A stretch of DNA of 64,000 nucleotides from Candidatus Kaiserbacteria bacterium (lineage in GTDB: Bacteria > Patescibacteriota > Minisyncoccia > Phycocordibacterales > SBAW01), in assembly GCA_009691465.1 (NCBI GenBank), contig SICK01000001.1, positions 24,705-88,704 on the forward strand, written 5' to 3'. Both the position numbers and the translations under genes were made by a program. The notes beneath the pieces were generated by a model, which did no database searches, was not told where the DNA came from, and worked only from the letters and a program-made list of their open reading frames with translations. Shown here in pieces: positions 3,609-61,216 of the stretch. How positions within the stretch are numbered: position 1 is the stretch's first letter; each line of letters opens with the position of its first letter.

Positions 3609-5010
3609 ACTGAACGAGCTCACTATCGCAGAAGCATCAAAAAAACTCGCTGCGGGCGAGATAACCGCCGTGCAGTTGGCGCAGGCGTGTCTGGATGAGA
3701 TTGCAAAAAGAAATCCGGAGCTGAACGCTTATCTGGAAGTGTTTGATGATGTGCTAGAGCAAGCCAAGAAAGCCGACGAACGCCGCGCCGCGGGGGAGAG
3801 TCATCCTCTGTTGGGAATTCCGCTCGCTGTAAAAGACAATATTTTGATACAGGGGCGTGTCGCGTCGGCCGCGAGCAAGATGCTCGAACAGTATGTCGCG
3901 ACCTATGACGCAACGGTGATAAAAAAACTCAAAGAAGCCGGGGCAGTATTCCTCGGTCGCACCAACATGGACGAATTTGCGATGGGCGGCAGTAACGAAA
4001 ATTCGGCTTTTGGTCCTGCAAAAAATCCGCATGATGAAAGTCGAGTGACCGGCGGCTCATCGGGCGGTTCGGCGGCGGCGGTTGCTGCGCACCTCTGTTT
4101 GGGAGCATTGGGGAGCGATACGGGCGGCTCGGTGCGCGAGCCAAGCAGTTTTTGCGGTGTGGTCGGGTTTAAGCCGACCTACGGCGCAGTGTCGCGCTCG
4201 GGGTTGATGGCGATGGGCTCGTCTCTCGACCAAGTAGGCCCTATTACTAAAACGCTGGAAGATGCGGAGATATTGTTTGACACTATCCGCGGCAAAGACC
4301 CGTTGGACAGTACATCCGTAGACCCGGAAGATCTCAAATCACAAACCTCAAATAACAAACGCATCGGCGTGCCGCGCCACTTATTTAAAGAGGGGATAGA
4401 CCAAGACGTGCTTGAGCGGTTTGAAGCGTCGCTCAAAAAATTGGAGGGGCAGGGCTACGAGCTGGTTGATATCACCCTGCCATCCTCGCCGCTGGCGCTC
4501 GCCCTGTACTACATCATCATGCCCGCCGAAGCATCGAGCAACCTGGCGCGTTTCGACGGGGTGCGTTACGGATTGTCGCTCAAAGGCTCGTCGCTAATCG
4601 AAGATTATGCAAAAACGAGAGGGGAAGGTTTTGGCCCCGAGGTGCGCCGCCGCATCATGCTCGGCACCTATGTGCTTTCGGCCGGCTACTACGACGCCTA
4701 CTACGGCAAGGCCATCGCCGCACGCGCGCTTTTGCGCAAAGAATACAATGATGCGCTCAAGACGCTTGCGTGCATTGCAACACCCACGGTGCCCTCGCCC
4801 GCATTTGCTTTGGGAGAAAAGTCCGACCCGCTGGCTATGTATCTCGCCGATATTTTTACCGTTTCGGCAAACCTTACCGGCAATCCGGCCGTCTCGGTCC
4901 CGATGGGGACCGTAGAACGCGGAGGAAAAGCCCTGCCGGCAGGGTTGCAACTCACCGCTGCGCATGGGGATGAAGCGGCGCTCTTTGTGGTAGGAAAGGC
5001 GTTAGAATAG
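3601..5010 (+). CDS. gatA: Asp/Glu-tRNA(Asn/Gln) amidotransferase subunit A
   Basis: 469 aa. Amidase signature GGSSGGSAAAVAA and GSDTGGSVREPSSFCGVVGFKPTYG. Confidence 0.95.
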   Translation: MNKLNELTIAEASKKLAAGEITAVQLAQACLDEIAKRNPELNAYLEVFDDVLEQAKKADERRAAGESHPLLGIPLAVKDNILIQGRVASAASKMLEQYVATYDATVIKKLKEAGAVFLGRTNMDEFAMGGSNENSAFGPAKNPHDESRVTGGSSGGSAAAVAAHLCLGALGSDTGGSVREPSSFCGVVGFKPTYGAVSRSGLMAMGSSLDQVGPITKTLEDAEILFDTIRGKDPLDSTSVDPEDLKSQTSNNKRIGVPRHLFKEGIDQDVLERFEASLKKLEGQGYELVDITLPSSPLALALYYIIMPAEASSNLARFDGVRYGLSLKGSSLIEDYAKTRGEGFGPEVRRRIMLGTYVLSAGYYDAYYGKAIAARALLRKEYNDALKTLACIATPTVPSPAFALGEKSDPLAMYLADIFTVSANLTGNPAVSVPMGTVERGGKALPAGLQLTAAHGDEAALFVVGKALE

Positions 5011-5015
5011 AGGTG

Positions 5016-5603
5016 ATGCAAAACGGCGTCGATTTTTTGAACCTCGAGTATCTGCTCGTGCGCTCGTACGAGTTTGTAGCGAGCTTCCATGGGACACTAG
5101 GGCAATTCCCAGAGTGGGTAGGGGGAGTGGTATATTTTGTACTTGTGTTAGGCATGGTGCTGTCGTTTATACTCCTGATTTTTATTGTCTACTCCCAGAT
5201 CAAGCTTCTGCAGACCGAGCATGCCGGGTTCCACGCGATGGAGGCCGAGAGCCACGAAGCGCACGACCCCGAAGTAGAGTCGACCGGCAAGAACGACCGG
5301 TGGGAGCGCATTGTCGAGCTTGCCGCCTCGGCAAACGAAAGCGAGTGGCGCCGCGCGATACTGGAGGCCGACATCATGCTCGGGGACGTGTTGTCAGACC
5401 AGGGCTATGAGGGAGCGAGCGTCGGCGAGCAGCTGAAGATGGCCAACCCGATACAAATGACCACGCTCGACTTGGCATGGAAGGCGCACAAAGTGCGCAA
5501 CGACATCGCGCACGGGGGCGAGCGCTACAAGCTTGAGGAACGCGAGGTCCGCGTGGCCATAGACTACTTTAAACGCGTGTTTGAAGAATTCGCTGCGATT
5601 TAG
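5016..5603 (+). CDS. Membrane-anchored hypothetical protein with C-terminal helical domain carrying an RNDIAH (R-x4-H) motif
   Basis: TM helix VVYFVLVLGMVLSFILLIFIV. C-terminal AWKAHKVRNDIAHG. TAGAAT at 5003-5008 lies 7 nt before ATG 5016. Confidence 0.6.
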   Translation: MQNGVDFLNLEYLLVRSYEFVASFHGTLGQFPEWVGGVVYFVLVLGMVLSFILLIFIVYSQIKLLQTEHAGFHAMEAESHEAHDPEVESTGKNDRWERIVELAASANESEWRRAILEADIMLGDVLSDQGYEGASVGEQLKMANPIQMTTLDLAWKAHKVRNDIAHGGERYKLEEREVRVAIDYFKRVFEEFAAI

Positions 5604-5606
5604 CCA

Positions 5607-5642
5607 AACGAAAAGGCACCCTACTGGGTGCCTTTTCGTTAT
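5607..5642 (+). terminator. Rho-independent terminator
   Basis: AACGAAAAGGCACCC-TACT-GGGTGCCTTTTCGTT perfect hairpin directly after the stop at 5603. Confidence 0.65.
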
Positions 5643-5643
5643 C

Positions 5644-5718
5644 TGGTTGCGGGGGCGGGAATTGCACCCGCGACCTCAAGGTTATGAGCCTTGTGAGCTA
5701 CTACTGCTCCACCCCGCT
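5644..5718 (-). tRNA. tRNA-fMet (CAT), initiator-like
   Basis: AGCGGGGTGGAGCAG...CTCATAA...CCCCCGCAACCA. 1:72 is unpaired (A:A), A11:T24 is present, and the acceptor arm closely resembles the E. coli initiator. CCA is encoded. D-loop and T-loop are atypical. Confidence 0.85.
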
Positions 5719-5745
5719 ATAAAAGGTATTCTAGCACAGTGCGGG

Positions 5746-5819
5746 TGTCGGCGGAAGGACTTGCACCTTCGACCTTGGGTTTATGAGTCCCATGCTCTAA
5801 CTACCTGAGCTACGCCGAC
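5746..5819 (-). tRNA. tRNA with CAT anticodon (elongator Met or Ile2)
   Basis: GTCGGCGTAGCTCAGGTAGTTAGAGC..CTCATAA..GAAGGTGCAAGTCCTTCCGCCGACA cloverleaf. G1:C72 is paired. CCA is not encoded. Confidence 0.85.
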
Positions 5820-5856
5820 GTGAGCTTAGGCTAGCATTTTTACCGTCGCTCTTCAA

Positions 5857-5994
5857 TTACGATACGGTCCCGACAATCGTCCGCGCAAAGTCGAGGATGA
5901 GATTGAGGACGGAAATGAAGAACGTGATGATGAGCGTCAAAAACGCCAGCAAAAAGTTGAGGATGGTGTTGAGCAGGGAGGTGATAGCGTCCAT
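5857..5994 (-). CDS. Small hydrophobic protein (45 aa), below the track cutoff
   Basis: MDAITSLLNTILNFLLAFLTLIITFFISVLNLILDFARTIVGTVS*. TATACT (6001-6006, minus strand) lies 6 nt upstream of the ATG. Confidence 0.35.
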   Translation of the reverse strand: MDAITSLLNTILNFLLAFLTLIITFFISVLNLILDFARTIVGTVS

Positions 5995-6016
5995 GCAGAT
6001 AGTATAGCAAACGTTG

Positions 6017-6090
6017 CGCGAGAGACGGGACTTGAACCCGCAACCTCTGCCGTGACAGGGCAGCGCTCTAACCAGTTGAGCTACTCCCGC
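6017..6090 (-). tRNA. tRNA-Asp (GTC)
   Basis: GCGGGAGTAGCTCAACTGGTTAGAGC..CTGTCAC..TTCAAGT cloverleaf. Confidence 0.9.
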
Positions 6091-6128
6091 AACTGCGGGT
6101 CGAACAAGGCGATTTTAGCGCAAAAACG

Positions 6129-6512
6129 CTATTTTTCCAACGAGGAGGGCAGGACACCCTTTTGTTCGCAGAAATTACGGAACTCGACTTTAAGACGGTC
6201 GAGCTCCTCGTCGGTCATGTCCTCGGCATCAATAAGGATGTTGCGTGCAGCATCGTTGGCCTTGATAAGTTCGTCGAGCTTAAGGTGTATCGCATGCGCA
6301 TCGCGGTTCTGGGTGTTTTGTATCAAAAACACCATCAAGAAGGTCAGCACGGTGGTGCCCGTGTTGATGATGAGCTGCCACGTGTCAGAGAAGTGGAATA
6401 TCGGTCCGCACAGCGCCCAGATGACGATGATAAAAAACGCCCATGCAAACGCCCACGAACTCCCCATCAACTGACTTGCTTTATGCGCCGCCTTCCGGAA
6501 CACGTCGTTCAT
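6129..6512 (-). CDS. Low-affinity iron permease family protein
   Basis: FSDTWQLIINTGTTVLTFLMVFLIQNTQNRDAHAIHLKLDELI matches the family signature as I remember it. Confidence 0.75.
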   Translation of the reverse strand: MNDVFRKAAHKASQLMGSSWAFAWAFFIIVIWALCGPIFHFSDTWQLIINTGTTVLTFLMVFLIQNTQNRDAHAIHLKLDELIKANDAARNILIDAEDMTDEELDRLKVEFRNFCEQKGVLPSSLEK

Positions 6513-7029
6513 ATACCGGTAGTGTAACCCGGAACTTCAGTGCCCGTATAGCCGGCAGTGGGGGGAGCGCAGGGAGGCTCGGCAGGTGGATACTAATCGC
6601 GACACGAGCCGAAGTGTAGGCCAGGTAGGAGAGGAAGAGTACATAGGGCAGCGACATCGCCACAAAGAATATCCACAGCCGTGTCGTCGGGGCGGCAAAC
6701 ATGTACAGTGCGCTGCTTATGAGCAGGGGCACAAAGGTCCGGTAGAGGGCATTGGTGTCAAACAGGGGAGTAACGCCGGCCTTATCCTCTGCGTAGAGCC
6801 AATAGAGAAAGGCAAATCCTCTCCACGTGGCATATACAGCGCTTACGAGGCATAGGGTCCACAGTGGCGTGTGGTACGAGCGCAGGACCAACAGCGCCGC
6901 AAAAAGCTGTGCGGCCGCCAGACCGCCGGCGAGCGGCAAGAACAGCGCAAGACGCGACGCGCGATAGGTCTCGCGCATCCAAGCAATAGGAGTGAATCGG
7001 GCTTCCATAAAAACATATCGTACCGCCAT
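6481..7029 (-). CDS. Hypothetical polytopic membrane protein
   Basis: 182-aa ORF with several hydrophobic helices. It overlaps the downstream gene by 32 nt. No recognised motif. Confidence 0.5.
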   Translation of the reverse strand: MAVRYVFMEARFTPIAWMRETYRASRLALFLPLAGGLAAAQLFAALLVLRSYHTPLWTLCLVSAVYATWRGFAFLYWLYAEDKAGVTPLFDTNALYRTFVPLLISSALYMFAAPTTRLWIFFVAMSLPYVLFLSYLAYTSARVAISIHLPSLPALPPLPAIRALKFRVTLPVYERRVPEGGA

Positions 7030-7281: not shown

Positions 7282-8148
7282 GTGGAAAAGGAACAAAAAG
7301 AGGAAAGAATAAAAGAGATAGAGGCGGCTATGCAAACCGCCGACTTTTGGAGTAATCCGGCGGAGGCCCAGCAACTGATTAAAGAGCTGCAGGATCTGAA
7401 GACGGAGGCCGAAGGCGGTTCGGCGTATGACCGCGGCGGGGCGATACTGTCTATGGTTGCGGGCGCCGGGGGTGACGATGCCGAGGACTTTGCCCGCATG
7501 CTTTTTGAGATGTACCGGAAGTATTTTGAAAAGCGGGGATGGAGCGCAAAGGTGTTGCACGAAAACCGCAACGACCACGGCGGATTTCGCAACCTTTCGG
7601 TAGAAGTGGATGCAAAGGGCGCCTACCGCACGCTTAAAAACGAGTACGGCGTCCACCGCTTGGTGCGCCTTTCTCCCTATAATGCCTCACAAAAGCGCCA
7701 CACCTCGTTTGTGTTGGTCGAGGTCTTGCCGGTCATCGACAAAGTCGCCGCTATTGAGCTCGACGAAAAGGAGTTGGAGATCACGGTGGCGCGCAGTAGC
7801 GGCCCCGGCGGGCAGAACGTCAACAAGCGCGAGACCGCGGTGCGCATCGTGCATACGCCGACCGGTATCAGTGCCCACGTCGACGGCGAGCGCACGCAGG
7901 GCGCCAACAAAGAAAAAGCACTCGCTATCGTGAAGGCAAAATTACTCCGCCGGCTCGAAGAAGAGCGTAAGGAAAAGATATCCGACCTGTCAGTCGCCAC
8001 GGGCAAGATAGAGTGGGGGAGCCAGATACGCTCCTATGTCCTGCACCCCTACAAATTGGTCAAAGACCACCGCAGTGGCGTAGAGGTCCGCGATGCCGAA
8101 GGCGTACTCGACGGCAACCTCGAACCCTTTTTGGAAAAATCAGAATAA
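7282..8148 (+). CDS. prfB: Peptide chain release factor 2 (compact form)
   Basis: GGQ motif [22 protein letters not shown]2-type region [22 protein letters not shown] start 25 nt after the tRNA. Only 288 aa. Confidence 0.85.
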
Positions 8149-8170
8149 GGTACAATAAGGAGCGTTAAAA

Positions 8171-8851
8171 ATGATCTACTACGACCGCGTATCCAAAATA
8201 TACGCTGACAACTCTGTTGCACTCGAAGACGTCAGCTTCTCCGTAGAGCCGGGAGAGTTCGTCTCCATCGTCGGGCACTCCGGCGCGGGCAAGACGACGC
8301 TGGTCAAGATGCTCCTGGCCGAAGAAAAGCCCTCCAGCGGCGCGGTCTTTTTTGAGTCCATCAATATCCACGAGGTGCCGCTGTCCAAAATGGGCGCTCT
8401 GCGGCGCAAGATAGGCACGGTCTTTCAGGACTTCCGGTTGCTCCCCAACAAAACCGCGTACGAAAACATCGCCTTTGCGATGGAGGCGGCGGGCCGCAAT
8501 GAAGAAGAAATACACTCCGACGTGCCGCACGTGCTCGAGTTGGTCGACCTGGGCGACAAGATGAACAATTTTCCCGACGAGCTCTCCGGCGGCGAGCAGC
8601 AGCGCGTTGCTATCGCACGCGCCATCGTCAACCAGCCCGACGTCATCGTGGCCGACGAGCCGACGGGCAACCTCGACCCGGTCAACACGTTCGAAATCGT
8701 GCAAATCCTCAAAAAAATCAACGACCTCGGCACCACCATCATTTTGACCACCCATAACAAAGGCGTCATCGACGCACTCAAAAAACGCGTCATCACCATG
8801 GACCGCGGCAAGGTCATCCGCGACGATAGGGAAGGAAAGTATATACTGTAA
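8171..8851 (+). CDS. ftsE: Cell division ATP-binding protein FtsE
   Basis: Walker [10 protein letters not shown], signature [14 protein letters not shown], Walker [21 protein letters not shown] upstream. Confidence 0.9.
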
Positions 8852-9795: not shown

Positions 9796-11424
9796 ATGGC
9801 GAGCCCTAAATACATTTTTGTTGTAGGCGGTGTGATGTCGGGCATCGGCAAAGGGGTCGCCTCCTCCGCGATAGGGCGGATTATGCAGAGCAAGGGTTAC
9901 AAGACGACGGCGATTAAAATCGACCCGTATATCAACGTCGACGCCGGCACGATGAACCCCACCGAGCACGGCGAGGTCTTTGTGCTGGACGACGGCTACG
10001 AGACCGACCAGGACATGGGCAACTATGAGCGCTTTTTGGGCGAGACACTGCCGAGCATCAACTATATGACCACCGGCCGGGTGTATCAGGAGGTCATCCG
10101 GCGCGAGCGCAACCTCGAGTACAAAGGCAAAAACGTCGAGGTCGTGCCCGACATCCCGCTCGAGGTCATCCGGCGCATTACCGAGGCACAAAAAGCGGCC
10201 AACGCGGATGTAACGCTCATCGAGGTGGGCGGCACCATCGGCGAGTATCAAAACATCATTTTTTTGGAGGCGGCGCGCATGCTCAAGCAAAAGTATCCGC
10301 ACGACGTGGGTGTCGTTATGCTCTCCTACGTCCCTATCCCGGGCAACATCGGCGAGATGAAGACCAAGCCCACGCAGTACGCGGCGAGGAGTCTCAACTC
10401 GGTGGGGTTGCAGGCCGACGTCATTTTGGCCCGCGCAGCCGTACCCATCGATGAGAAGCGCAAAGAAAAGATAGCTATTTTTTGCAACATACTGCCCGAG
10501 CGGGTTATTTCGGCCCCCGACGTCGAGTCGATTTATGACGTACCTATTAATTATGAAAAGGACGGTCTCGGCGACATACTCTGCGACGTGTTGGGGCTCG
10601 AGCGCCGGCCTACCGACCTCTCTGCCTGGGAGGCGTTTGTCAAAAAATCCAAAAACGGTTCAAAAAAAATCAACATCGCCGTGGTGGGGAAGTATTTCGA
10701 GTCCGGCGAGTACGTGCTTGCCGACGCGTACATCTCGGTGTTAGAGGCGCTCAAACACGCGGCCTACAGCCAAGACCTCGGGGTCAAACTTTCCTATCTG
10801 GACTCCGAAGGGTACGAGCAGGACCCCGCCAAACTTTCCGAACTCAAGAACTATGACGGTGTGTTGGTACCGGGCGGGTTTGGGAGTCGTGGTGTCGAGG
10901 GCATTATCGCGGCGATACAGTTTGCACGCGAGCAGAAGATCCCGTATTTCGGACTTTGCTACGGCATGCAGCTCTTAACCATCGAGTACGCGCGCAACGT
11001 TGCCGGGCTCGCCGGGGCCAACACCGCCGAAATAAACAAAGACGCTCCGCACCCCATCATCGACGTGATGCCCGGTCAGGAAGACCTGCTGACCAAACAA
11101 GACTACGGCGGGACCATGCGCTTGGGCACGTATCCGTGCGTGCTTAAAGAGGGTACGATCGCGCACGGCGCGTATGGTAGCGGCGAGGTCGCCGAGCGCC
11201 ACCGCCACCGCTACGAGGTTAATCCGGAATATATACAAAAGCTCTCCGACGCGGGGCTGGTCTTTTCGGGCACGTCCCCCGATGGTCGTCTGATGGAGAT
11301 AGCCGAACTCTCTAAAGACGTACATCCTTTTATGCTCGGGACGCAGTTCCATCCGGAGTTTCTCTCGCGCCCGCTCTCGCCGCATCCGCTTTTTGTCGCT
11401 TTTATCAAAGCCGCTTCCAAATAA
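9796..11424 (+). CDS. pyrG: CTP synthase
   Basis: KYIFVVGGVMSGIGKG N-terminus. GATase domain GLCYGMQ...QFHPEF. Confidence 0.95.
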   Translation: MASPKYIFVVGGVMSGIGKGVASSAIGRIMQSKGYKTTAIKIDPYINVDAGTMNPTEHGEVFVLDDGYETDQDMGNYERFLGETLPSINYMTTGRVYQEVIRRERNLEYKGKNVEVVPDIPLEVIRRITEAQKAANADVTLIEVGGTIGEYQNIIFLEAARMLKQKYPHDVGVVMLSYVPIPGNIGEMKTKPTQYAARSLNSVGLQADVILARAAVPIDEKRKEKIAIFCNILPERVISAPDVESIYDVPINYEKDGLGDILCDVLGLERRPTDLSAWEAFVKKSKNGSKKINIAVVGKYFESGEYVLADAYISVLEALKHAAYSQDLGVKLSYLDSEGYEQDPAKLSELKNYDGVLVPGGFGSRGVEGIIAAIQFAREQKIPYFGLCYGMQLLTIEYARNVAGLAGANTAEINKDAPHPIIDVMPGQEDLLTKQDYGGTMRLGTYPCVLKEGTIAHGAYGSGEVAERHRHRYEVNPEYIQKLSDAGLVFSGTSPDGRLMEIAELSKDVHPFMLGTQFHPEFLSRPLSPHPLFVAFIKAASK

Positions 11425-11453
11425 GACTGATTTTTGCTATCGTTGCCGTGTAT

Positions 11454-11524
11454 TGCCAGATCGTCTAATGGTAGGACAACGGACTCTGAATCCGTTTATC
11501 TTGGTTCGAATCCAAGTCTGGCAG
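11454..11524 (+). tRNA. tRNA-Gln (CTG)
   Basis: TGCCAGATCGTCTAATGGTAGGAC, anticodon loop CTCTGAA, T-arm CTTGGTTCGAATCCAAG. Confidence 0.9.
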
Positions 11525-11617
11525 CTCGAATTTTTAAGAAGCGTAGCGCCTATAAAAATTCAGAGTCCCGAACAAGCTTGCTTGGAGGGGCCGAATTTTT
11601 AAGCGTATTATATATCC

Positions 11618-11854
11618 ATGTATTTGGTCTATATCCTAGAGTGTAGCGACCGAACCTTATACACAGGTATAACAAATAATTTGGAACGCCGATTTTATCA
11701 ACACCAGAAAGGGGCTGGCGGTCATTACACAAGCTCCAAACAAGTAGTTAGAATTGTTTATACTGAAGAACACCCCGACCGCTCGTCGGCTTTAAAACGC
11801 GAAGCCGAAATAAAAAGCTGGCGCAGAGAAAAGAAACTAGCTTTATTTGAGTAA
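11618..11854 (+). CDS. GIY-YIG nuclease family protein (small, UPF0213/YhbQ-like)
   Basis: MYLVYILECSDRTLYTGITNNLERRFYQH...REAEIKSW is the GIY-YIG core. Confidence 0.85.
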   Translation: MYLVYILECSDRTLYTGITNNLERRFYQHQKGAGGHYTSSKQVVRIVYTEEHPDRSSALKREAEIKSWRREKKLALFE

Positions 11855-11964
11855 AATAAAAAAGACCAGAGCGAATTGTTCTGATCCTTGTTCGAATTCA
11901 GTCGTAATGCTTTTTTATAGAACTTAGTGTAATGTCCTGCTAGACACAAAGCGGGAGATTACCG

Positions 11965-12324
11965 ATGGACAAGTCGGCAAGCCGATTTGCTCTGAAGTTG
12001 CGGGAGCTTGGCTTCGAGAGGGTCGAGGGTGCAGACAAGGAATATCATGTCCGTACCACTACCGCTCGTATCGAGCGGACGCTCGGTAAGTCCTCAAGAC
12101 ACGAACGTCGAAAGTTAAGAAGCCTGATTCTGAGAATGCTGAAAGAGCAACCCTCCTACACCGTTACAGTGTTCCGGGATGGGACGGCATTGACAGAGGC
12201 GTCCGACGACACGGGCCAAATGTGGAAAGCCGAGGGAAATATCGACCTCCGTCCTTTTGGTTTTCTCAACAACGCCGAGTGGATCATCAACCACCACAAG
12301 GCGAAGGCTTCAACAGTTCACTAA
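11965..12324 (+). CDS. Hypothetical protein
   Basis: 119-aa ORF in the AT-richer region, followed by a strong terminator. No recognised motif. Confidence 0.55.
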   Translation: MDKSASRFALKLRELGFERVEGADKEYHVRTTTARIERTLGKSSRHERRKLRSLILRMLKEQPSYTVTVFRDGTALTEASDDTGQMWKAEGNIDLRPFGFLNNAEWIINHHKAKASTVH

Positions 12325-12358
12325 CCGCCCCTGTAAGTGGGGCGGCTTTTTCTTTTTC
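12325..12358 (+). terminator. Rho-independent terminator
   Basis: CCGCCCC-TGTAAGT-GGGGCGG followed by CTTTTTCTTTTT. Confidence 0.7.
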
Positions 12359-12470
12359 CTAATTGTTCTGAACGCATCCAACTGAGGCAGCCAGTGTGCA
12401 AAGCCAATAAAAAAGGGAGGTGTTTCGGAGTGCTACAATAGGAGTGTAGAAATTCATCTAAATCAACCCC

Positions 12471-12746
12471 ATGAAAAAGAGGATAGTAAGCAAAAAAACG
12501 GCCAAGAAAATAAAATCGGCCGGTAAAAGTGTAGCGAAGAAAACAGGATCGTTTGTGAGGAAAGCAAACAAAGAAGTAGGCAAAACGGCAAGGGCGCTTC
12601 AGAAGGAGTGGAAAAGAGAGCAGCCACAGCGTGAAGAATATATAAGAAATTTCAAGAAAATTGGCGGTGATGTTATTGAAACTATAAAAAAAGACGTAAG
12701 GGAAATTCGCAATAATAAAACGAAAGGCAAGAATAAAAAGAAATAA
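12471..12746 (+). CDS. Hypothetical lysine-rich basic protein
   Basis: 91-aa ORF, very K-rich (MKKRIVSKKTAKKIKSAGKSVAKK...KGKNKKK). TACAAT box about 30 nt upstream. Confidence 0.5.
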   Translation: MKKRIVSKKTAKKIKSAGKSVAKKTGSFVRKANKEVGKTARALQKEWKREQPQREEYIRNFKKIGGDVIETIKKDVREIRNNKTKGKNKKK

Positions 12747-46254: not shown

Positions 46255-46556
46255 CTAGGAGCGCGTTGAACAGTAGCCTCACCCGCAAGGGTGGGGAGGA
46301 AAGTCCGAGCTCTCATCCGCCTTCGGGCGAGATAACAAGGTAGCAGGTAACCCCTGTCGTACGCTTTTTGCGGGCGTAAGAGGTGCGAACAGAGACGAGT
46401 CCCGCCGCAAGGCGGGAGTGAAACGGCAAAATCCTTACCCGGGAGCAAGGCCGTGCCGTGTCGCAAGACATGGAGTGCCGCTAGAGCCCCACAGCGATGT
46501 GTGGCCCAGATAAATTACTGTTTACAACAGAACTCGGCTTACAGACGCGCGCGCAG
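46255..46556 (+). ncRNA. rnpB: RNase P RNA (bacterial type A)
   Basis: Conserved GGAGGAAAGTCCGAGC (about 46296-46310), GTGAAACGG, GGAGCAAGGCC and ACAGAACTCGGCTTACAG (about 46527-46544). Ends are approximate. Confidence 0.88.
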
Positions 46557-46562
46557 TATGTG

Positions 46563-58416: not shown

Positions 58417-58554
58417 AAATTTGGTGGTCACAAGTCGAGCTTCGCCGTCGCGCAACTCGCTCGCGACCCCGGCTCGCGGCTCTGCAAATGCAGGGCATCG
58501 CTGCGCCTTGCACAAAGCACAAAGTCTGCCGTGAGGCATACTTTGTGTCTTTTG

Positions 58555-58627
58555 TGCACCCTGAGAGATTCGAACTCCCGGCCTACCCCACGTCAAGGGG
58601 TCGCTCTACCAACTGAGCTAAGGGTGC
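58555..58627 (-). tRNA. tRNA-Val (GAC)
   Basis: GCACCCTTAGCTCAGTTGGTAGAGC, anticodon loop TTGACGT. Confidence 0.9.
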
Positions 58628-58653
58628 GCCATCAAAAAATAGCAGAGAAAGCG

Positions 58654-58908
58654 CTATTTGTCATCGCCCCAGCGCCAGCGCGCGGGCTCGCCGGTCTTGT
58701 GGGCGATATACCAAAGAGCCGCGACCAACAGAGCGGTCTGCGGAATAAAATTTATGAGCGTGTCGCTTACCGAGTGCGAGGAGGAGTCGATGCGATAAAA
58801 GTTGGCGAGCATGAGCACCAAAAATAGCAGCATAATCAGCCACCCCTCCCACGTGGCCGGGTACCAGCCATAGCCGTAGCGTTTGGCTTTGAACCAGTAT
58901 TTTTGCAT
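58654..58908 (-). CDS. Small membrane protein (YGYGWYPATWEGW motif)
   Basis: MQKYWFKAKRYGYGWYPATWEGWLIMLLFLVLML. The track extension overlaps tRNA-Ser. Confidence 0.55.
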   Translation of the reverse strand: MQKYWFKAKRYGYGWYPATWEGWLIMLLFLVLMLANFYRIDSSSHSVSDTLINFIPQTALLVAALWYIAHKTGEPARWRWGDDK

Positions 58909-58933
58909 TACTTCTATGTTAGTTTTTAATGAG

Positions 58934-59020
58934 CGGAGGAGGTGAGATTCGAACTCACGGTGAGGTTTCCCCCACGCCACATTTCGAGTGTGGTGCCTTC
59001 GACCACTCAGCCACTCCTCC
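58934..59020 (-). tRNA. tRNA-Ser (CGA)
   Basis: GGAGGAGTGGCTGAGTGGTCGAAGGC, anticodon loop CTCGAAA, long variable arm. Confidence 0.9.
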
Positions 59021-59078
59021 TTGGTCTAGCCAAAATAAAGTACCATTTTTTAGCGTTTTACGCTATAGTTTGAGCCAA

Positions 59079-59150
59079 GGCCCTATCGTCTAACGGTTAG
59101 GACGCCGGCTTTTCAAGCCGTTAATCCGGGTTCGATTCCCGGTAGGGTCA
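59079..59150 (+). tRNA. tRNA-Glu (TTC)
   Basis: GGCCCTATCGTCTAACGGTTAGGAC, anticodon loop TTTTCAA, T-arm CCGGGTTCGATTCCCGG. Confidence 0.9.
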
Positions 59151-59237
59151 CAATTTTTTTAGCCTTATTCCACAACGCCGTTTGGAGCACCCAAACGGGA
59201 AATTTTCGCGAGTTGGAACCATGCTAGCATTTAAGAC

Positions 59238-59708
59238 ATGGCGCGAATTGGTAATGTCATTTTTTGGATTATTGCTGTGGCCGTGGGGGGTTTCTTCTTA
59301 ATGATGTTTGCGGCTGGAATTATGTCTGGTTTGGGTACACAGAATCAGGCAAACGGAGTCTCAGTGACCGACTCAAATCCTATTGGGCTTCATATAATAA
59401 ACGAACAAGTAAAACTGGGAGACACCATTACGGTTGTATGGGATTCGACGAGAATTCCTCCTAATGCTCGGGGTATGGGCTTGCATATTGTCCGGCCAGA
59501 CCATAATTACGTAAGTGGAGTTGGGGTCGTAGGAATTGACCCAAGACTTGGCTCGTATCAACTGCAAAAGCTCCCCAGCGAACCTTTTTATGGATTTGTT
59601 GACGGCGGAGAGTACTACGTCAGCGCTCTGGTCACCGATACGGCAGACCCTAATGGGAATATACTCATGAAGGCGGATAGTGATTCCTTTCGAATAATCT
59701 CTCAATGA
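59238..59708 (+). CDS. Hypothetical membrane-anchored protein
   Basis: N-terminal TM VIFWIIAVAVGGFFLMMFAAGIM followed by a beta-rich domain. AT-richer codon usage. Confidence 0.5.
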   Translation: MARIGNVIFWIIAVAVGGFFLMMFAAGIMSGLGTQNQANGVSVTDSNPIGLHIINEQVKLGDTITVVWDSTRIPPNARGMGLHIVRPDHNYVSGVGVVGIDPRLGSYQLQKLPSEPFYGFVDGGEYYVSALVTDTADPNGNILMKADSDSFRIISQ

Positions 59709-60082
59709 AAAGACATTTCATATGGTTCTTCATTACAGTCGCCCTGCTCTGGGGGATTGGTGTAGCGGGTAGTATCGTCTTTGAGTGCCAAGGTGCTCTA
59801 GGTTCAGGAGTTCGGTGTGCCAAAGGAGGCCCACTTGGTTTGTTTATGGAAGGCTACTTGCCGAGTATGGAGATAGGTCTGATTTTCGTGATCTTCCTCG
59901 GCATTCCTGTAGCGATAGTTGTCGGTTCGATTATGCTTTTTCGAAGAATTTCAAAGCAAGAGAAAGTACAAAGTGTGTCTGCACCGAATTCAACTCAACA
60001 TACCTCATGGACAAAATACCTCCTGCTAATCCCTACAATAGGGATAGGTATTATATTTTTACTGAATATTCTGTTTGATTAA
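59705..60082 (+). CDS. Hypothetical membrane protein
   Basis: 4-nt overlap with the upstream ORF. Three hydrophobic helices. Confidence 0.5.
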   Translation: MKRHFIWFFITVALLWGIGVAGSIVFECQGALGSGVRCAKGGPLGLFMEGYLPSMEIGLIFVIFLGIPVAIVVGSIMLFRRISKQEKVQSVSAPNSTQHTSWTKYLLLIPTIGIGIIFLLNILFD

Positions 60083-60148
60083 TTCCCTCCCAAACCGCTG
60101 CCACTGATACAGCTCCCATACTAGCTGGTTCCAATTAGCTCCCACTTG

Positions 60149-60200
60149 GGTCAGCGCAGAAAAAGAGCCGCCATAAGGCGGCCTTTTTTGTACGCTGACC
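60149..60200 (+). terminator. Long composite hairpin / bidirectional terminator
   Basis: GGTCAGCG...AAAAAG.GCCGCC-ATAA-GGCGGC.TTTTTT...CGCTGACC. Confidence 0.6.
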
Positions 60201-60355
60201 ACTAAGCAAAGTCTGGGAGACTTTGCGGCCGGGAATCGAAAGCCGGAGCGGGCCCCAGACCAGCAGGTCTGGGAGCGAGGCAGGGTCGTGCGGCCAAAAT
60301 TGCGACGGCAATTTTGGAACGCCTGACCGATCCGTGCTTGCCTGCGGCAAGACAC

Positions 60356-60370
60356 TTCCCGGTAGGGTCA
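60356..60370 (+). repeat. Direct repeat of the tRNA-Glu 3' end (att-like)
   Basis: TTCCCGGTAGGGTCA is identical to 59136-59150. Confidence 0.7.
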
Positions 60371-60394
60371 GCGCAAGGGGAGTATGATAGGGCT

Positions 60395-60799
60395 ATGGCT
60401 AAACGAAAAGCGCCCGGAAGCACGGGCAGGGGGAAATTTTATCGGATAGAGTTGCGGCCCAAAGGGCAGTTTAGCAGCTTCCGCGTACAGGATGTGGGTA
60501 AAAAGGGCGGGCTCGAGCGCCTGGCCGGACACCGCCGTAGCGGTAGTTGGGACACGGTGTCGTGGCTGATATCCAAAGACAAAGCGTCGGTGGTCAAAGG
60601 GCACCTCAAGATTACGGGCAAAAAAGAGCAGAGCGTACTCAAACAAATCAAAGGGCCGATTGTGCACGTCAAAGCCGATATCTTCCGCGCGCATCCGCGC
60701 AACGTCCCGGAGGCCAAAAAGCCCACCCCCGCTATGCGCCGGGCACAGCGCGCCAACATCAAAAAAGCACAGACGGCCCGGGCAAAGAAGCGCCGCTAA
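60395..60799 (+). CDS. Hypothetical basic protein
   Basis: MAKRKAPGSTGRGKFYRIELRPKG... with a K/R-rich tail. TATGAT (60383-88) lies 6 nt before the ATG. Confidence 0.55.
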   Translation: MAKRKAPGSTGRGKFYRIELRPKGQFSSFRVQDVGKKGGLERLAGHRRSGSWDTVSWLISKDKASVVKGHLKITGKKEQSVLKQIKGPIVHVKADIFRAHPRNVPEAKKPTPAMRRAQRANIKKAQTARAKKRR

Positions 60800-60817
60800 A
60801 AACGCTATACTAGAGGT

Positions 60818-61216
60818 ATGGTCAAAAAGATAGTTACCTTCTTCGACAAGCTTGAGGACCGGGTGCGTATACGGCTCTCGCACAACCCCATACTCTATGC
60901 GCTTGTGGGCGCGGTGGGGATCATTTTGCTCTGGAAGGGCGTGTGGGAGGTCGCCGAGCTCATCCCCGCGCTCCATGGGTTCGGCTCGCTCATTGCCGGC
61001 ATCATCATATTGCTGATGAGCGGCCTCTTGGTGTCGTTTTTTATAGGCGACAGCATCATCCTCTCGGGATTTAAAAAAGAAAAGAAATTGGTAGAAAAGA
61101 GCGAGCTCGATATTTTAAAAGCCGAAGAGTCGCAGACCACCGAGATTATGCGCAAGCTCGAGCATTTAGAAAAGGACATCCACGAGCTCAAAGGCGACCA
61201 CCGCCACAACGTATAA
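60818..61216 (+). CDS. Hypothetical membrane protein with C-terminal coiled coil
   Basis: TATACT (60806-11) lies 6 nt before the ATG. Two TM helices followed by a charged helix. Confidence 0.55.
   Translation: MVKKIVTFFDKLEDRVRIRLSHNPILYALVGAVGIILLWKGVWEVAELIPALHGFGSLIAGIIILLMSGLLVSFFIGDSIILSGFKKEKKLVEKSELDILKAEESQTTEIMRKLEHLEKDIHELKGDHRHNV

Follow-up and report, generated by a model that had tools for sequence, protein, structure and literature searches.

The subject of this study is a short, AT-rich islet lying directly after the glutamate tRNA gene, tRNA-Glu(UUC), in a 64,000-nucleotide (nt) stretch of bacterial DNA, hereafter called the window. An earlier interpretation made from the letters alone, designated below as the sequence-only reading, described here a 1.2-kb islet bounded by 15-nt direct repeats and containing a nested attachment scar. 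The source genome belongs to the Paceibacteria of the candidate phyla radiation (CPR): both open reading frames (ORFs) of the islet, ORF1 and ORF2, are identical to the hypothetical proteins EXS62_00560 and EXS62_00565 of a metagenome-assembled genome (MAG) of Candidatus Kaiserbacteria. A syntenic comparison set of 80 loci was fetched with TsaD as the query, and the relatives obtained in this way were all MAGs of Paceibacteria or Parcubacteria. The fetched loci and contigs are designated by L with a number, and homologous proteins by P with a number. The islet and its borders are composed of the following features.

59079-59151, plus strand: tRNA-Glu(UUC), found by ARAGORN and with 63.7 bits by the Rfam tRNA model; its 3' end serves as the left half of attB, an attachment site
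59145-59150, plus strand: attL core GGGTCA, the last 6 nt of the tRNA, common to the right junction and the empty site
59151-59237, minus strand: left islet end (P' side of attP), in which the final ~25 codons of the body of a large serine recombinase (LSR) survive as a remnant, continuing as a conserved leader to the start codon of ORF1
59238-59708, plus strand: ORF1, cargo, 156 amino acids (aa), with an N-terminal membrane anchor and one hydrophobic segment
59705-60082, plus strand: ORF2, cargo, 125 aa, with three hydrophobic segments
60059-60153, minus strand: orphan LSR C-terminal tail, ..TQVGANWNQLVWELYQWQRFGRELIKQNIQ followed by a stop codon (14 tails were aligned); the islet ends on the right with this P side of attP
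60141-60153, plus strand: attR core region CCCACTTGGGTCA, the true right boundary; what follows it adjoins the tRNA in L007

The last 15 nt of tRNA-Glu, TTCCCGGTAGGGTCA, are found exactly at 59136-59150 and at 60356-60370, as had been reported, and no further copy is present in the window, even if as many as two mismatches are tolerated; shuffled sequences gave 0.10 matches on average, and 1 of 100 reached two. By our own arithmetic, about 1e-4 second exact 15-mers are expected by chance in 2 x 64 kb. The identity extends to 20 nt, TTCCCGGTAGGGTCAGCGCA, when 5 nt past the tRNA junction that existed before the insertion (60154-60158) are counted. A partial copy, CACTTGGGTCAGCGCA, lies at 60143-60158 and may be compared with CACTT[CCCGGTA]GGGTCAGCGCA at 60353-60375. 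A run of seven T directly follows the tRNA, and a terminator-like hairpin occupies 60159-60190. The two membrane-protein ORFs, which overlap in ATGA, the T-run and the long terminator hairpin had all been described correctly by the sequence-only reading, whereas its statement that the whole 1.2 kb is AT-richer is valid for 59151-60153 and not for the final ~220 nt of the interval. In fact, 59151-60153 has a GC content of 0.453 against 0.571 in the window, which places it among the lowest 1.1% of 1-kb windows, and 60154-60375 has 60.8% GC; the base composition shifts at 60153, not at 60355. The GC content at third codon positions (GC3) is 0.43 in ORF1 and 0.41 in ORF2, compared with 0.68-0.76 in six neighbouring genes, and the proposed check of composition and codon usage thus marks the islet as foreign.

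The borders of the islet were established by comparison with L007, whose tRNA-Glu is identical to that of the window (72 of 72 nt), as is that of L013. In L007 the tRNA is directly followed by GCGCAC, a terminator-like hairpin, CGCTGACCCTA, a hairpin, CGGCCGGGAATCGAAAG and two more hairpins, and this stretch is the homologue of 60154-60365 of the window. The window from which 59151-60153 have been removed aligns to L007 at 82.5% over 257 nt. Since the tRNA of L007 is joined to the homologue of 60154, the insertion is 59151-60153, that is 1003 nt with 45% GC in a window of 57% GC. The sequence-only reading had proposed a search for an empty site; one does exist, but in it the tRNA adjoins the homologue of 60154. 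The left junction reads tRNA..GGGTCA/CAATTTTT, the right junction ..CCCACTTGGGTCA/GCGCAG and the empty site of L007 ..GGGTCA/GCGCAC, the slash marking the point of joining here and below. In terms of attachment sites, attL is ..CCCGGTAGGGTCA/CAATTTTT, attB (from L007) ..CCCGGTAGGGTCA/GCGCAC, attR ..CCCACTTGGGTCA/GCGCAG, and the attP-like sites of L152 and L141 are ..CCCACTTGGGTCA/TAAATTTT or CCACTTTC. Joining of the islet ends, 60153 to 59151, would give ..CCCACTTGGGTCA/CAATTTTTTT.., and the hybrid junctions attL and attR have just the short core GGGTCA in common with attB and attP. The presence/absence polymorphism between L007 and the window falls exactly at this core, and 59151-60153 is a real insertion.

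These borders bear directly on the view that a tyrosine integrase inserted a single islet of 1.2 kb (59151-60355) bounded by the exact 15-nt repeats, with 60143-60158 as an internal scar. A direct repeat including a tRNA 3' end is the textbook signature of tyrosine-integrase insertion into a tRNA gene, and the repeat found here, 20 nt long with GCGCA, does include the tRNA 3' end. The empty site on this view would be the tRNA directly followed by GCGCAAGGGG. However, the unit 60154-60375 is present without the ORF segment in L007, L139 and others, the composition changes at 60153 instead of 60355, and the ORF segment ends on the right in the LSR tail, whose core is at 60141-60153. In addition, copies of the tRNA-Glu end lie 150-205 nt past the tRNA in seven other genomes with no ORFs between them; units of this kind are found in L016, L079 (two copies), L072 (two copies), L069, L024 and L054. 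The repeats of at least 15 nt bound a composite of islet and structured element, whereas the ORF segment alone is bounded by the 6-nt core. A single 1.2-kb unit is very improbable. The 15-nt repeats had thus been taken wrongly for the islet bounds: its right end is at 60153, and the copy at 60356-60370 closes a conserved element of ~215 nt which also occurs in islet-free genomes. The partial copy at 60143-60158 has the sequence that was described, but it is the true right boundary rather than a nested scar.

At either end, the islet consists of a fragment from the 3' end of an integrase gene. The motif TTCCAATTNNNNCCCACTTGGGTCA, with 21 specified bases taken from the right end, was found exactly in 76 metagenome contigs and in zero contigs of a viral-contig scan; fewer than one chance match is estimated, the size of the collection being our own guess. 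The opposite strand of the motif encodes [VLM]TQVGxNWNQL[VI]xEL..W..FG..L and then a stop codon. In most of the contigs the similarity starts exactly at the junction, and in L141, L085, L095, L084, L148 and L113 the motif is instead the end of a long ORF, that of L141 being a partial LSR with the Pfam domains PF07508 (Recombinase) and PF13408 (Zn_ribbon_recom). The tail is therefore the C-terminus of an LSR whose gene spans the attachment core. By our reading of the alignment, many of the differences between tails (TAT/TAC and CTG/TTG, for example) are synonymous when read on the strand of the integrase, which would fit a derivation from functional integrase genes. The ~75 nt at the right end show 79-84% identity to two cassette ends in L026.

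The left end, read across the reconstructed circular junction, gives ..SRKFPVWVLQTALWNKAKKIV/TQVGANWNQLVWELYQWQRFGRELIKQNIQ and a stop, in frame, with a stop codon a few codons upstream. The corresponding junction peptide is ..FPVWVLQTALWNKAKKIV/TQVG.. in the window, and the matching one in L152 is ..LPVWVLQTALLNKLKKFM/TQVG... Over ~60-90 nt this end is conserved in L152 copy 2, L026 cassette 3, L096 cassette 1 and L090. Because the ends are in frame and the left one is conserved, it may be concluded that the islet retains both halves of attP and has lost the enzyme, of which ~25 codons are left at the left end and 31 at the right one. The earlier statement that no integrase remains is accurate for a functional integrase and overlooks these fragments. 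The only recombinase remnants found are of the serine type, and a search of ORF1, ORF2 and the neighbouring 134-aa ORF (P134) against Pfam and PHROG, confined to these three products of the window, gave no tyrosine recombinase.

Intact and decayed relatives of the element were found at the same target. L144 contains a complete integrated element with a 503-aa LSR having Resolvase, Recombinase and Zn-ribbon domains; the protein ends ..KKSNL/VTPQRIEL and a stop codon inside the antisense strand of tRNA-Glu (8499-8573), the cargo genes lie at 4754-6800, and an orphan tail, VTQVGRNWNQLISELIAWDRLGRDIITARELV, with the core is situated ~4.1 kb from the tRNA. In the window, tblastn with three LSR queries found no gene for an LSR with Resolvase, Recombinase, zinc-ribbon and coiled-coil parts, and the relatives L144 and L070 have full-length LSRs, so the window holds a derivative and not a complete LSR element. 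In L020 a decayed integrase C-terminus runs into the tRNA, ..NSNL/VTLPGIEPGFRP, and the flanks of L001 and L051, whose ORFs were not called, resemble that of L020. At 7470-8411, L020 encodes an in-frame fusion of a DUF5677 domain with the ~110 C-terminal aa of an LSR, so the 3' end of the integrase gene outlasts the destruction of the enzyme at this site. A second type of LSR, also ending inside tRNA-Glu and in a different reading frame, occupies 521-2077 of L070.

Taken together, these data indicate, with a probability that we put at roughly 0.8, that 59151-60153 is a non-autonomous, integrase-deleted derivative of a group of small elements inserted by LSRs at tRNA-Glu(UUC) in Paceibacteria. 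According to the proposed scheme, the LSR would insert small elements immediately after the last base of tRNA-Glu(UUC). Its attP would lie within the 3' end of the integrase gene, and a crossover in or beside GGGTCA would split this gene. After integration, the integrase body would adjoin the tRNA and read into its antisense strand, and the last ~31 codons (..TQVGxNWNQL..) would be stranded as an orphan tail at the far end, beside the former downstream flank of the tRNA. In the window, the integrase body would have been lost except for ~25 codons, leaving both attP halves and two small membrane-protein genes of foreign composition, and the structured element of ~215 nt (60154-60375), normally situated directly after the tRNA, would have been displaced 1 kb downstream. 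Both the role of an LSR as the catalyst and the position of the crossover are what we infer from the compared junctions, and the cassette may still be movable in trans. The sequence-only reading had recognised a classic footprint of integration into a tRNA 3' end; site-specific integration was indeed found, but with a core of only ~6 nt (GGGTCA) and an LSR in place of the long-repeat tyrosine pattern. Its description of a decayed element or a small cargo mobilised in trans was a fair one.

The cargo is nearly orphan. ORF1 and ORF2 have no match in Pfam or PHROG, and each has one homologue only, besides the source record, among 5.8 billion cluster representatives; none of the 80 TsaD-fetched loci encodes ORF1, ORF2 or P134. 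The sole homologue of ORF1 is P0002 (48% identity). That of ORF2 is P0004 (67% identity), which is encoded directly after tRNA-Glu in L158 and L159, in another cassette with different neighbouring genes. Downstream of it come a truncated tail, a membrane ORF of 54 aa, a complete tail with the core, and a hairpin. The gene order of L096 is that of the window: tRNA-Val, tRNA-Ser, tRNA-Glu, then a homologue of the 132-aa membrane protein encoded at 60818-61216 of the window, and TrxB. L096 contains three tandem cassettes, in each of which a single ORF for a small membrane protein stands between a short leader and a tail of ~70 nt with the core, the tails being almost identical; the final cassette ends in CCCACTTGGGGTCA/GCGCAAC. 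The ORF of its cassette 2 resembles the N-terminus of ORF2 (pairwise E = 4e-8), and no similarity was found between ORF1 and the 154-aa cassette ORF of L096.

Two tails each are present in L026, L152, L094 and L134. Integrase-less tandem cassettes, mostly with one ORF and each ending in a tail, occur in L096, L026 and L152, and L158 likewise has a tandem array of such cassettes. As a rule, the cassette units carry one or two small membrane-protein genes and end in a conserved integrase-tail/attP half of 70-95 nt. In L019 and L036 TrxB follows directly after tRNA-Glu, so the interval between the tRNA and TrxB is a variable hotspot. One cassette of L026 (1244-2097) contains a pair of ORFs, one with Gp49 (PF05973, just under the cut-off) and the other with HTH_3, which may be read as a HigB-like toxin-antitoxin pair. 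The next cassette of L026 (2750-3070) has a strong sigma-70-like promoter, TTGACA-17-TATTAT, followed by ~250 nt of hairpin-rich non-coding DNA and a terminator.

The recurrence of these junctions also concerns the suspicion that the islet is a chimera of MAG assembly and that the real chromosome contains no insertion here. The sequence does come from a MAG, and the composition of the segment is sharply unlike its surroundings. However, the junction of tRNA-Glu with a cassette recurs in L158, L159 and L096, the junction of the tail core with the hairpin and module recurs in at least 11 contigs, and the islet ends are complementary halves of one integrase 3' region, all of which makes an artefact scarcely credible.

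Several observations weigh against the derivation of the islet from an LSR element as proposed above. L007 is not a close relative, its TsaD being 65% identical, and the nearest relative, L001 (TsaD 84%), has different, unrelated DNA at the site and so provides no empty site. The attB, attP, attL and attR sequences were pieced together from different genomes and sub-families and do not constitute a single matched set; in the assembled sequences no circular junction or excision product was seen, and tblastn of the 64-kb window, run with three LSR queries only, found no LSR gene. The array of L096 sits after the trailer module and not directly at the tRNA, so the insertion point is not always the same, or a later rearrangement took place. 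Several array cassettes are without a recognisable P' half-site, and the standard LSR reaction of attP with attB does not account for them.

Beyond the islet lies the structured element of ~215 nt. The order of 60154-60375 is hp0, an antisense tRNA copy split by a hairpin, a module of ~95 nt, a second hairpin, and the sense copy TTCCCGGTAGGGTCA(GCGCA). Its features are as follows.

60154-60193, plus strand: hp0, a long terminator-like hairpin (inverted repeat I2, 24-nt arms; terminator scan of both strands)
60193-60240, plus strand: antisense copy of the tRNA-Glu 3' end, with CGCTGACC(A)CTA at 60193-60204, a hairpin at 60206-60226 and CCGGGAATCGAA at 60229-60240
60236-60331, plus strand: tRNA-trailer module (covariance model R1, 36 bits, E = 3.6e-5)
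60356-60375, plus strand: sense copy of the tRNA-Glu 3' end with 5 flanking nt, TTCCCGGTAGGGTCAGCGCA; it closes the structured element on the 3' side

The position of hp0 relative to the tRNA is the same in L007, L016, L079 and L024, that is, normally directly after the tRNA. At least 11 metagenome contigs have hp0 and the module after the LSR tail core, with a spacing of 42 nt in L108 and L115 that equals the usual distance from a tRNA; LSR elements therefore insert between the tRNA and the structured unit. The sense copy of the window is 1205 nt from the tRNA, or ~203 nt after subtraction of the islet. CCGGGAATCGAA is complementary in 12 of 12 positions to the T-loop/T-stem sequence 59131-59142 (inverted repeat I12), and the split antisense layout recurs in L007, L139, L112, L079, L069 and L109. 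Segment 60356-60375 can pair with 60193-60204 and 60229-60235, and the folding of the unit is far better than that of shuffled sequences on both strands (z = -7.7 and -8.5). A scan of the window with Rfam 15 at gathering thresholds gave only tRNAs and RNase P, and a scan of 58500-61000 at E<=10 gave no plus-strand match in 60154-60375.

Several known types of RNA and element were considered for 60154-60375 and rejected. ARAGORN finds here neither a transfer-messenger RNA (tmRNA) nor a permuted tRNA. The sequence CUGACGAG in one hairpin recalls a hammerhead ribozyme, but on inspection the motif forms a closed hairpin loop and not a junction. As for a group II intron after a terminator, the module is only ~90 nt long and no intron model matched. 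TIGR arrays reportedly yield short 36-nt guide RNAs with spacers, unlike the self-complementary, covarying hairpins of ~90 nt found here. The antisense copy does not correspond to a primer-binding site of the retroviral type, since it matches the genomic flank (GCG) and not CCA. The group I introns in tRNAs of Patescibacteria are unrelated, since they sit in the anticodon loop (PMC13011429).

The module proved to be widespread. nhmmer was too insensitive for its search (6 matches), and a covariance model gave 52 matches, of which 51 were tabulated. The layout of the ~90-nt module is ..GCCGGAGC, hairpin 1, GCGAGGCGGGG, and a helix formed by GGUCGCGAG and CUUGUGACC around hairpin 2 with a UGACGA loop; it is also present in L015, L016, L023, L009, L096, L154, L001, L040, L068 and L077. 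Of the 51 matches, 28 start 8-150 nt, most commonly 41-44 nt, after a tRNA on the same strand, and 33 lie within 500 nt of a tRNA, among them Glu-UUC (16), Val-GAC (10) and Arg-CCU (4). A second copy in the window, on the minus strand at 58424-58513, begins 41 nt after tRNA-Val and ends 7 nt before the start codon of tsaD, thus filling the gap between these genes.

In two sets of loci, the second of them metagenomic, 92.4% and 92.5% of the cells of the module alignment are paired; these alignments were fitted to the structure of the model and are hence biased towards it, and controls with slid partners drop to 33-46% paired. Changes on both sides were found in 27 of 28 and 25 of 28 pairs, and none of 500 shuffles reached the observed covariation score. 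One pair is G.U in 24 of 30 and 20 of 21 sequences, which would fit an RNA on the tRNA-sense strand.

Bracketed units are not confined to tRNA-Glu, and each has an antisense T-arm matching its own tRNA. Sense copies of the last 14 nt of a tRNA within 450 nt downstream were found in 18 cases, including Arg (5/52), Ser (4/46), Phe (2/64) and both tRNA-Glu species; upstream of tRNAs there were 0 cases. Units of 100-250 nt were observed at tRNA-Arg (L049, L053, L057, L066), tRNA-Ser (L023, L066, L071), tRNA-Phe (L015, L066) and tRNA-Glu (L109, L128, L124). At the start of such a unit stands an antisense copy of the acceptor and/or T-arm of its tRNA, and at its end the last 14-26 nt of that tRNA are repeated in sense orientation. 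The units are sometimes tandem (L053), and their cores are interchangeable, one core type having a 7-nt hairpin loop N-U-GUA-A-N which is anticodon-loop-like.

Two explanations of the outer unit have to be weighed. It may be an older miniature insertion that duplicated a target of 15-26 nt at the tRNA 3' end, in which case two successive insertions would have occurred, as the sequence-only reading suggested; this is a serious possibility, if somewhat short of even odds. The duplication passes the tRNA end into the flank by 5 nt in the window and by 10-11 nt at tRNA-Phe in L015 and L066, units are tandem in L079, L072 and L053, and presence with the same tRNA is patchy (L013 is without the unit, L007 and the window are with it). 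Moreover, the copy of L069 matches the tRNA of L079 and not its own, and the 18 sense copies at Glu, Arg, Ser and Phe are all downstream, never upstream. On the other hand, no recombinase or mechanism was identified for such an insertion, and the module also occurs 41-44 nt after tRNA-Val and tRNA-Arg without any bracket, a downstream sense copy being found at 0 of 73 tRNA-Val. The strong covariation of RNA type on the tRNA strand is of the kind expected for a resident functional RNA, and the 3' copies are truncated in L007, L139 and L112.

Alternatively, the outer unit may be a resident structured RNA co-transcribed with the tRNA, in which the 15-nt repeat would be the 3' strand of a tRNA-like acceptor/T-stem closing helix under selection. 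The folding of the region (z = -7.7), the covariation of the core module and the conserved G.U pair fitting the tRNA-sense strand speak for this, as does the orientation, which is always that of the tRNA. L069 retains internal complementarity despite its differing tRNA, and the T-helix covaries: CCGGGAA with TTCCCGG, CCGGGAG with CTCCCGG, GGGGAAT with ATTCCCC, and CGGGAT with ATCCCG. However, roughly half of the examples (L007, L139, L112, L105, L024) have imperfect closing helices or lack them, the antisense copy reaches as far as the T-loop, an extension that a mere mimic of a tRNA could do without, and there is no Rfam family match. We regard a resident RNA as a tentative explanation that falls a little below an even chance. 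Whichever explanation of the outer unit holds, the ORF islet is not bounded by the 15-nt repeat. The sequence-only reading had held that a repeat belonging to a conserved structured RNA would speak against an att duplication; this is nearly the situation of the copy at 60356-60370, while the insertion itself stands. Its view of a two-layer locus, with a newer inner insertion and an older outer unit, was upheld.

The system predicted here from sequence comparison resembles several known ones in part. SCCmec (staphylococcal cassette chromosome mec) and the integrase-less pseudo-SCC elements are moved by the large serine recombinases CcrAB or CcrC at the 3' end of rlmH (orfX), and members that lack a recombinase keep repeats of the integration site on both sides and are probably mobilised in trans. 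They may be regarded as the closest functional analogue, with an LSR, the 3' end of a housekeeping gene as the target, and new elements that insert beside the target to give tandem composite arrays. Unlike SCCmec, the target here is a tRNA, attP is inside the recombinase ORF and leaves a coding tail, the size is 0.3-4 kb, and the hosts are CPR bacteria. The int/attP region of myxophage Mx8 is similar in having attP within the integrase coding sequence, a tRNA 3' end as the target and a C-terminus altered on integration, but Mx8 Int is a tyrosine recombinase, whereas Resolvase, Recombinase and Zn-ribbon domains are found here. Cis-mobilizable elements (CIMEs), formed by site-specific accretion at tRNA or fda sites, are likewise non-autonomous remnants with attL and attR that have lost the recombination module and stand in tandem with related elements; in contrast to them, as derivatives of conjugative elements with tyrosine integrases, the present elements have no conjugation genes and carry one or two small membrane-protein genes.

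The arrays, such as that of L096, resemble integron cassettes in being tandem short units, mostly of one ORF, with a conserved end site of ~70-95 nt and no internal recombinase. Unlike integrons, they have no attI and no attC with R''/L''/L'/R' symmetry, and the conserved site is a fragment of a serine-recombinase gene, so that the likeness is one of form only. By eye, no attC-type core (GTTRRRY) was seen in the cassettes, and no IntI turned up, no IntI-specific search having been made. As regards the structured element, mascRNA (MALAT1-associated small cytoplasmic RNA), the tRNA-like domain of tmRNA, YrlA and small RNAs from tRNA 3' external transcribed spacers are also structured, lie beside or mimic a tRNA in tRNA orientation and may have acceptor/T-stem-like ends. 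Compared with mascRNA, tmRNA and YrlA, 60154-60375 differs in having no Rfam match, in a 5' part that is antisense to the T-loop too, in possible tandem units and in cognate versions for each tRNA species. Literature searches on CPR serine recombinases, LSR elements at tRNA-Glu, and trailer RNA or CPR RNA motifs gave nothing specific.

The ambiguous att scar thus becomes a defined CPR family with a tRNA-Glu 3'-end target, a candidate attP/attB pair and a 6-nt core. Its layout is unusual, since attP lies within the last 30 codons of the integrase, so that integration alters the C-terminus of the enzyme. LSRs with short, defined sites are useful for genome engineering. Since the genomes of CPR bacteria are tiny and few mobile elements have been described in them, integrase-less cassette arrays carrying small membrane or secreted proteins could be a main route of cell-surface variation in these organisms. 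Comparison of the exact repeat also brought to light a covarying RNA module and the bracketed elements that follow several tRNA genes, all of them absent from Rfam. A wider picture may be drawn, which we consider rather unlikely in its entirety: Paceibacteria would possess at tRNA-Glu an integron-like serine-recombinase cassette system in which integrase-less units are captured, stacked and exchanged in trans and the in-gene attP switches the integrase C-terminus, and the bracketed elements would form a new, possibly mobile class of non-coding elements at tRNA 3' ends.

Just past the structured element lies the following gene.

60395-60799: 134-aa ORF (P134), a very basic orphan (MAKRKAPGSTGRGKF...)

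P134 has no match in Pfam or PHROG and no homologue in the 80 TsaD-fetched loci. Upstream of its start codon, ~25 nt (AAGGGGAGTATGATAGGGCTATGG) are similar to the leader of a PNPOx-like gene, itself unrelated, with which the array of L096 ends (7380-7410 of L096); this may be a shared cassette leader. A 27-nt inverted repeat, with 20 of 27 positions complementary, pairs 59061-59087 (the 5' end of tRNA-Glu and its upstream flank) with 60386-60412 (the start of the 134-aa ORF, just past the structured element), and it could be due to chance or be another tRNA-derived fragment. The RNase P RNA of the window (46258-46557) is shortened to 300 nt against the 367 positions of the model, with 109.5 bits at a gathering score of 100, and several of its helices are absent. 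The sole other patch of the window that is equally AT-rich (11050-12600, GC 0.43-0.49) begins directly after tRNA-Gln (11454-11525) and contains, at 11618-11854, a 78-aa ORF that resembles a GIY-YIG nuclease by eye, and also small basic ORFs; the patch may be a second tRNA-flanking islet.

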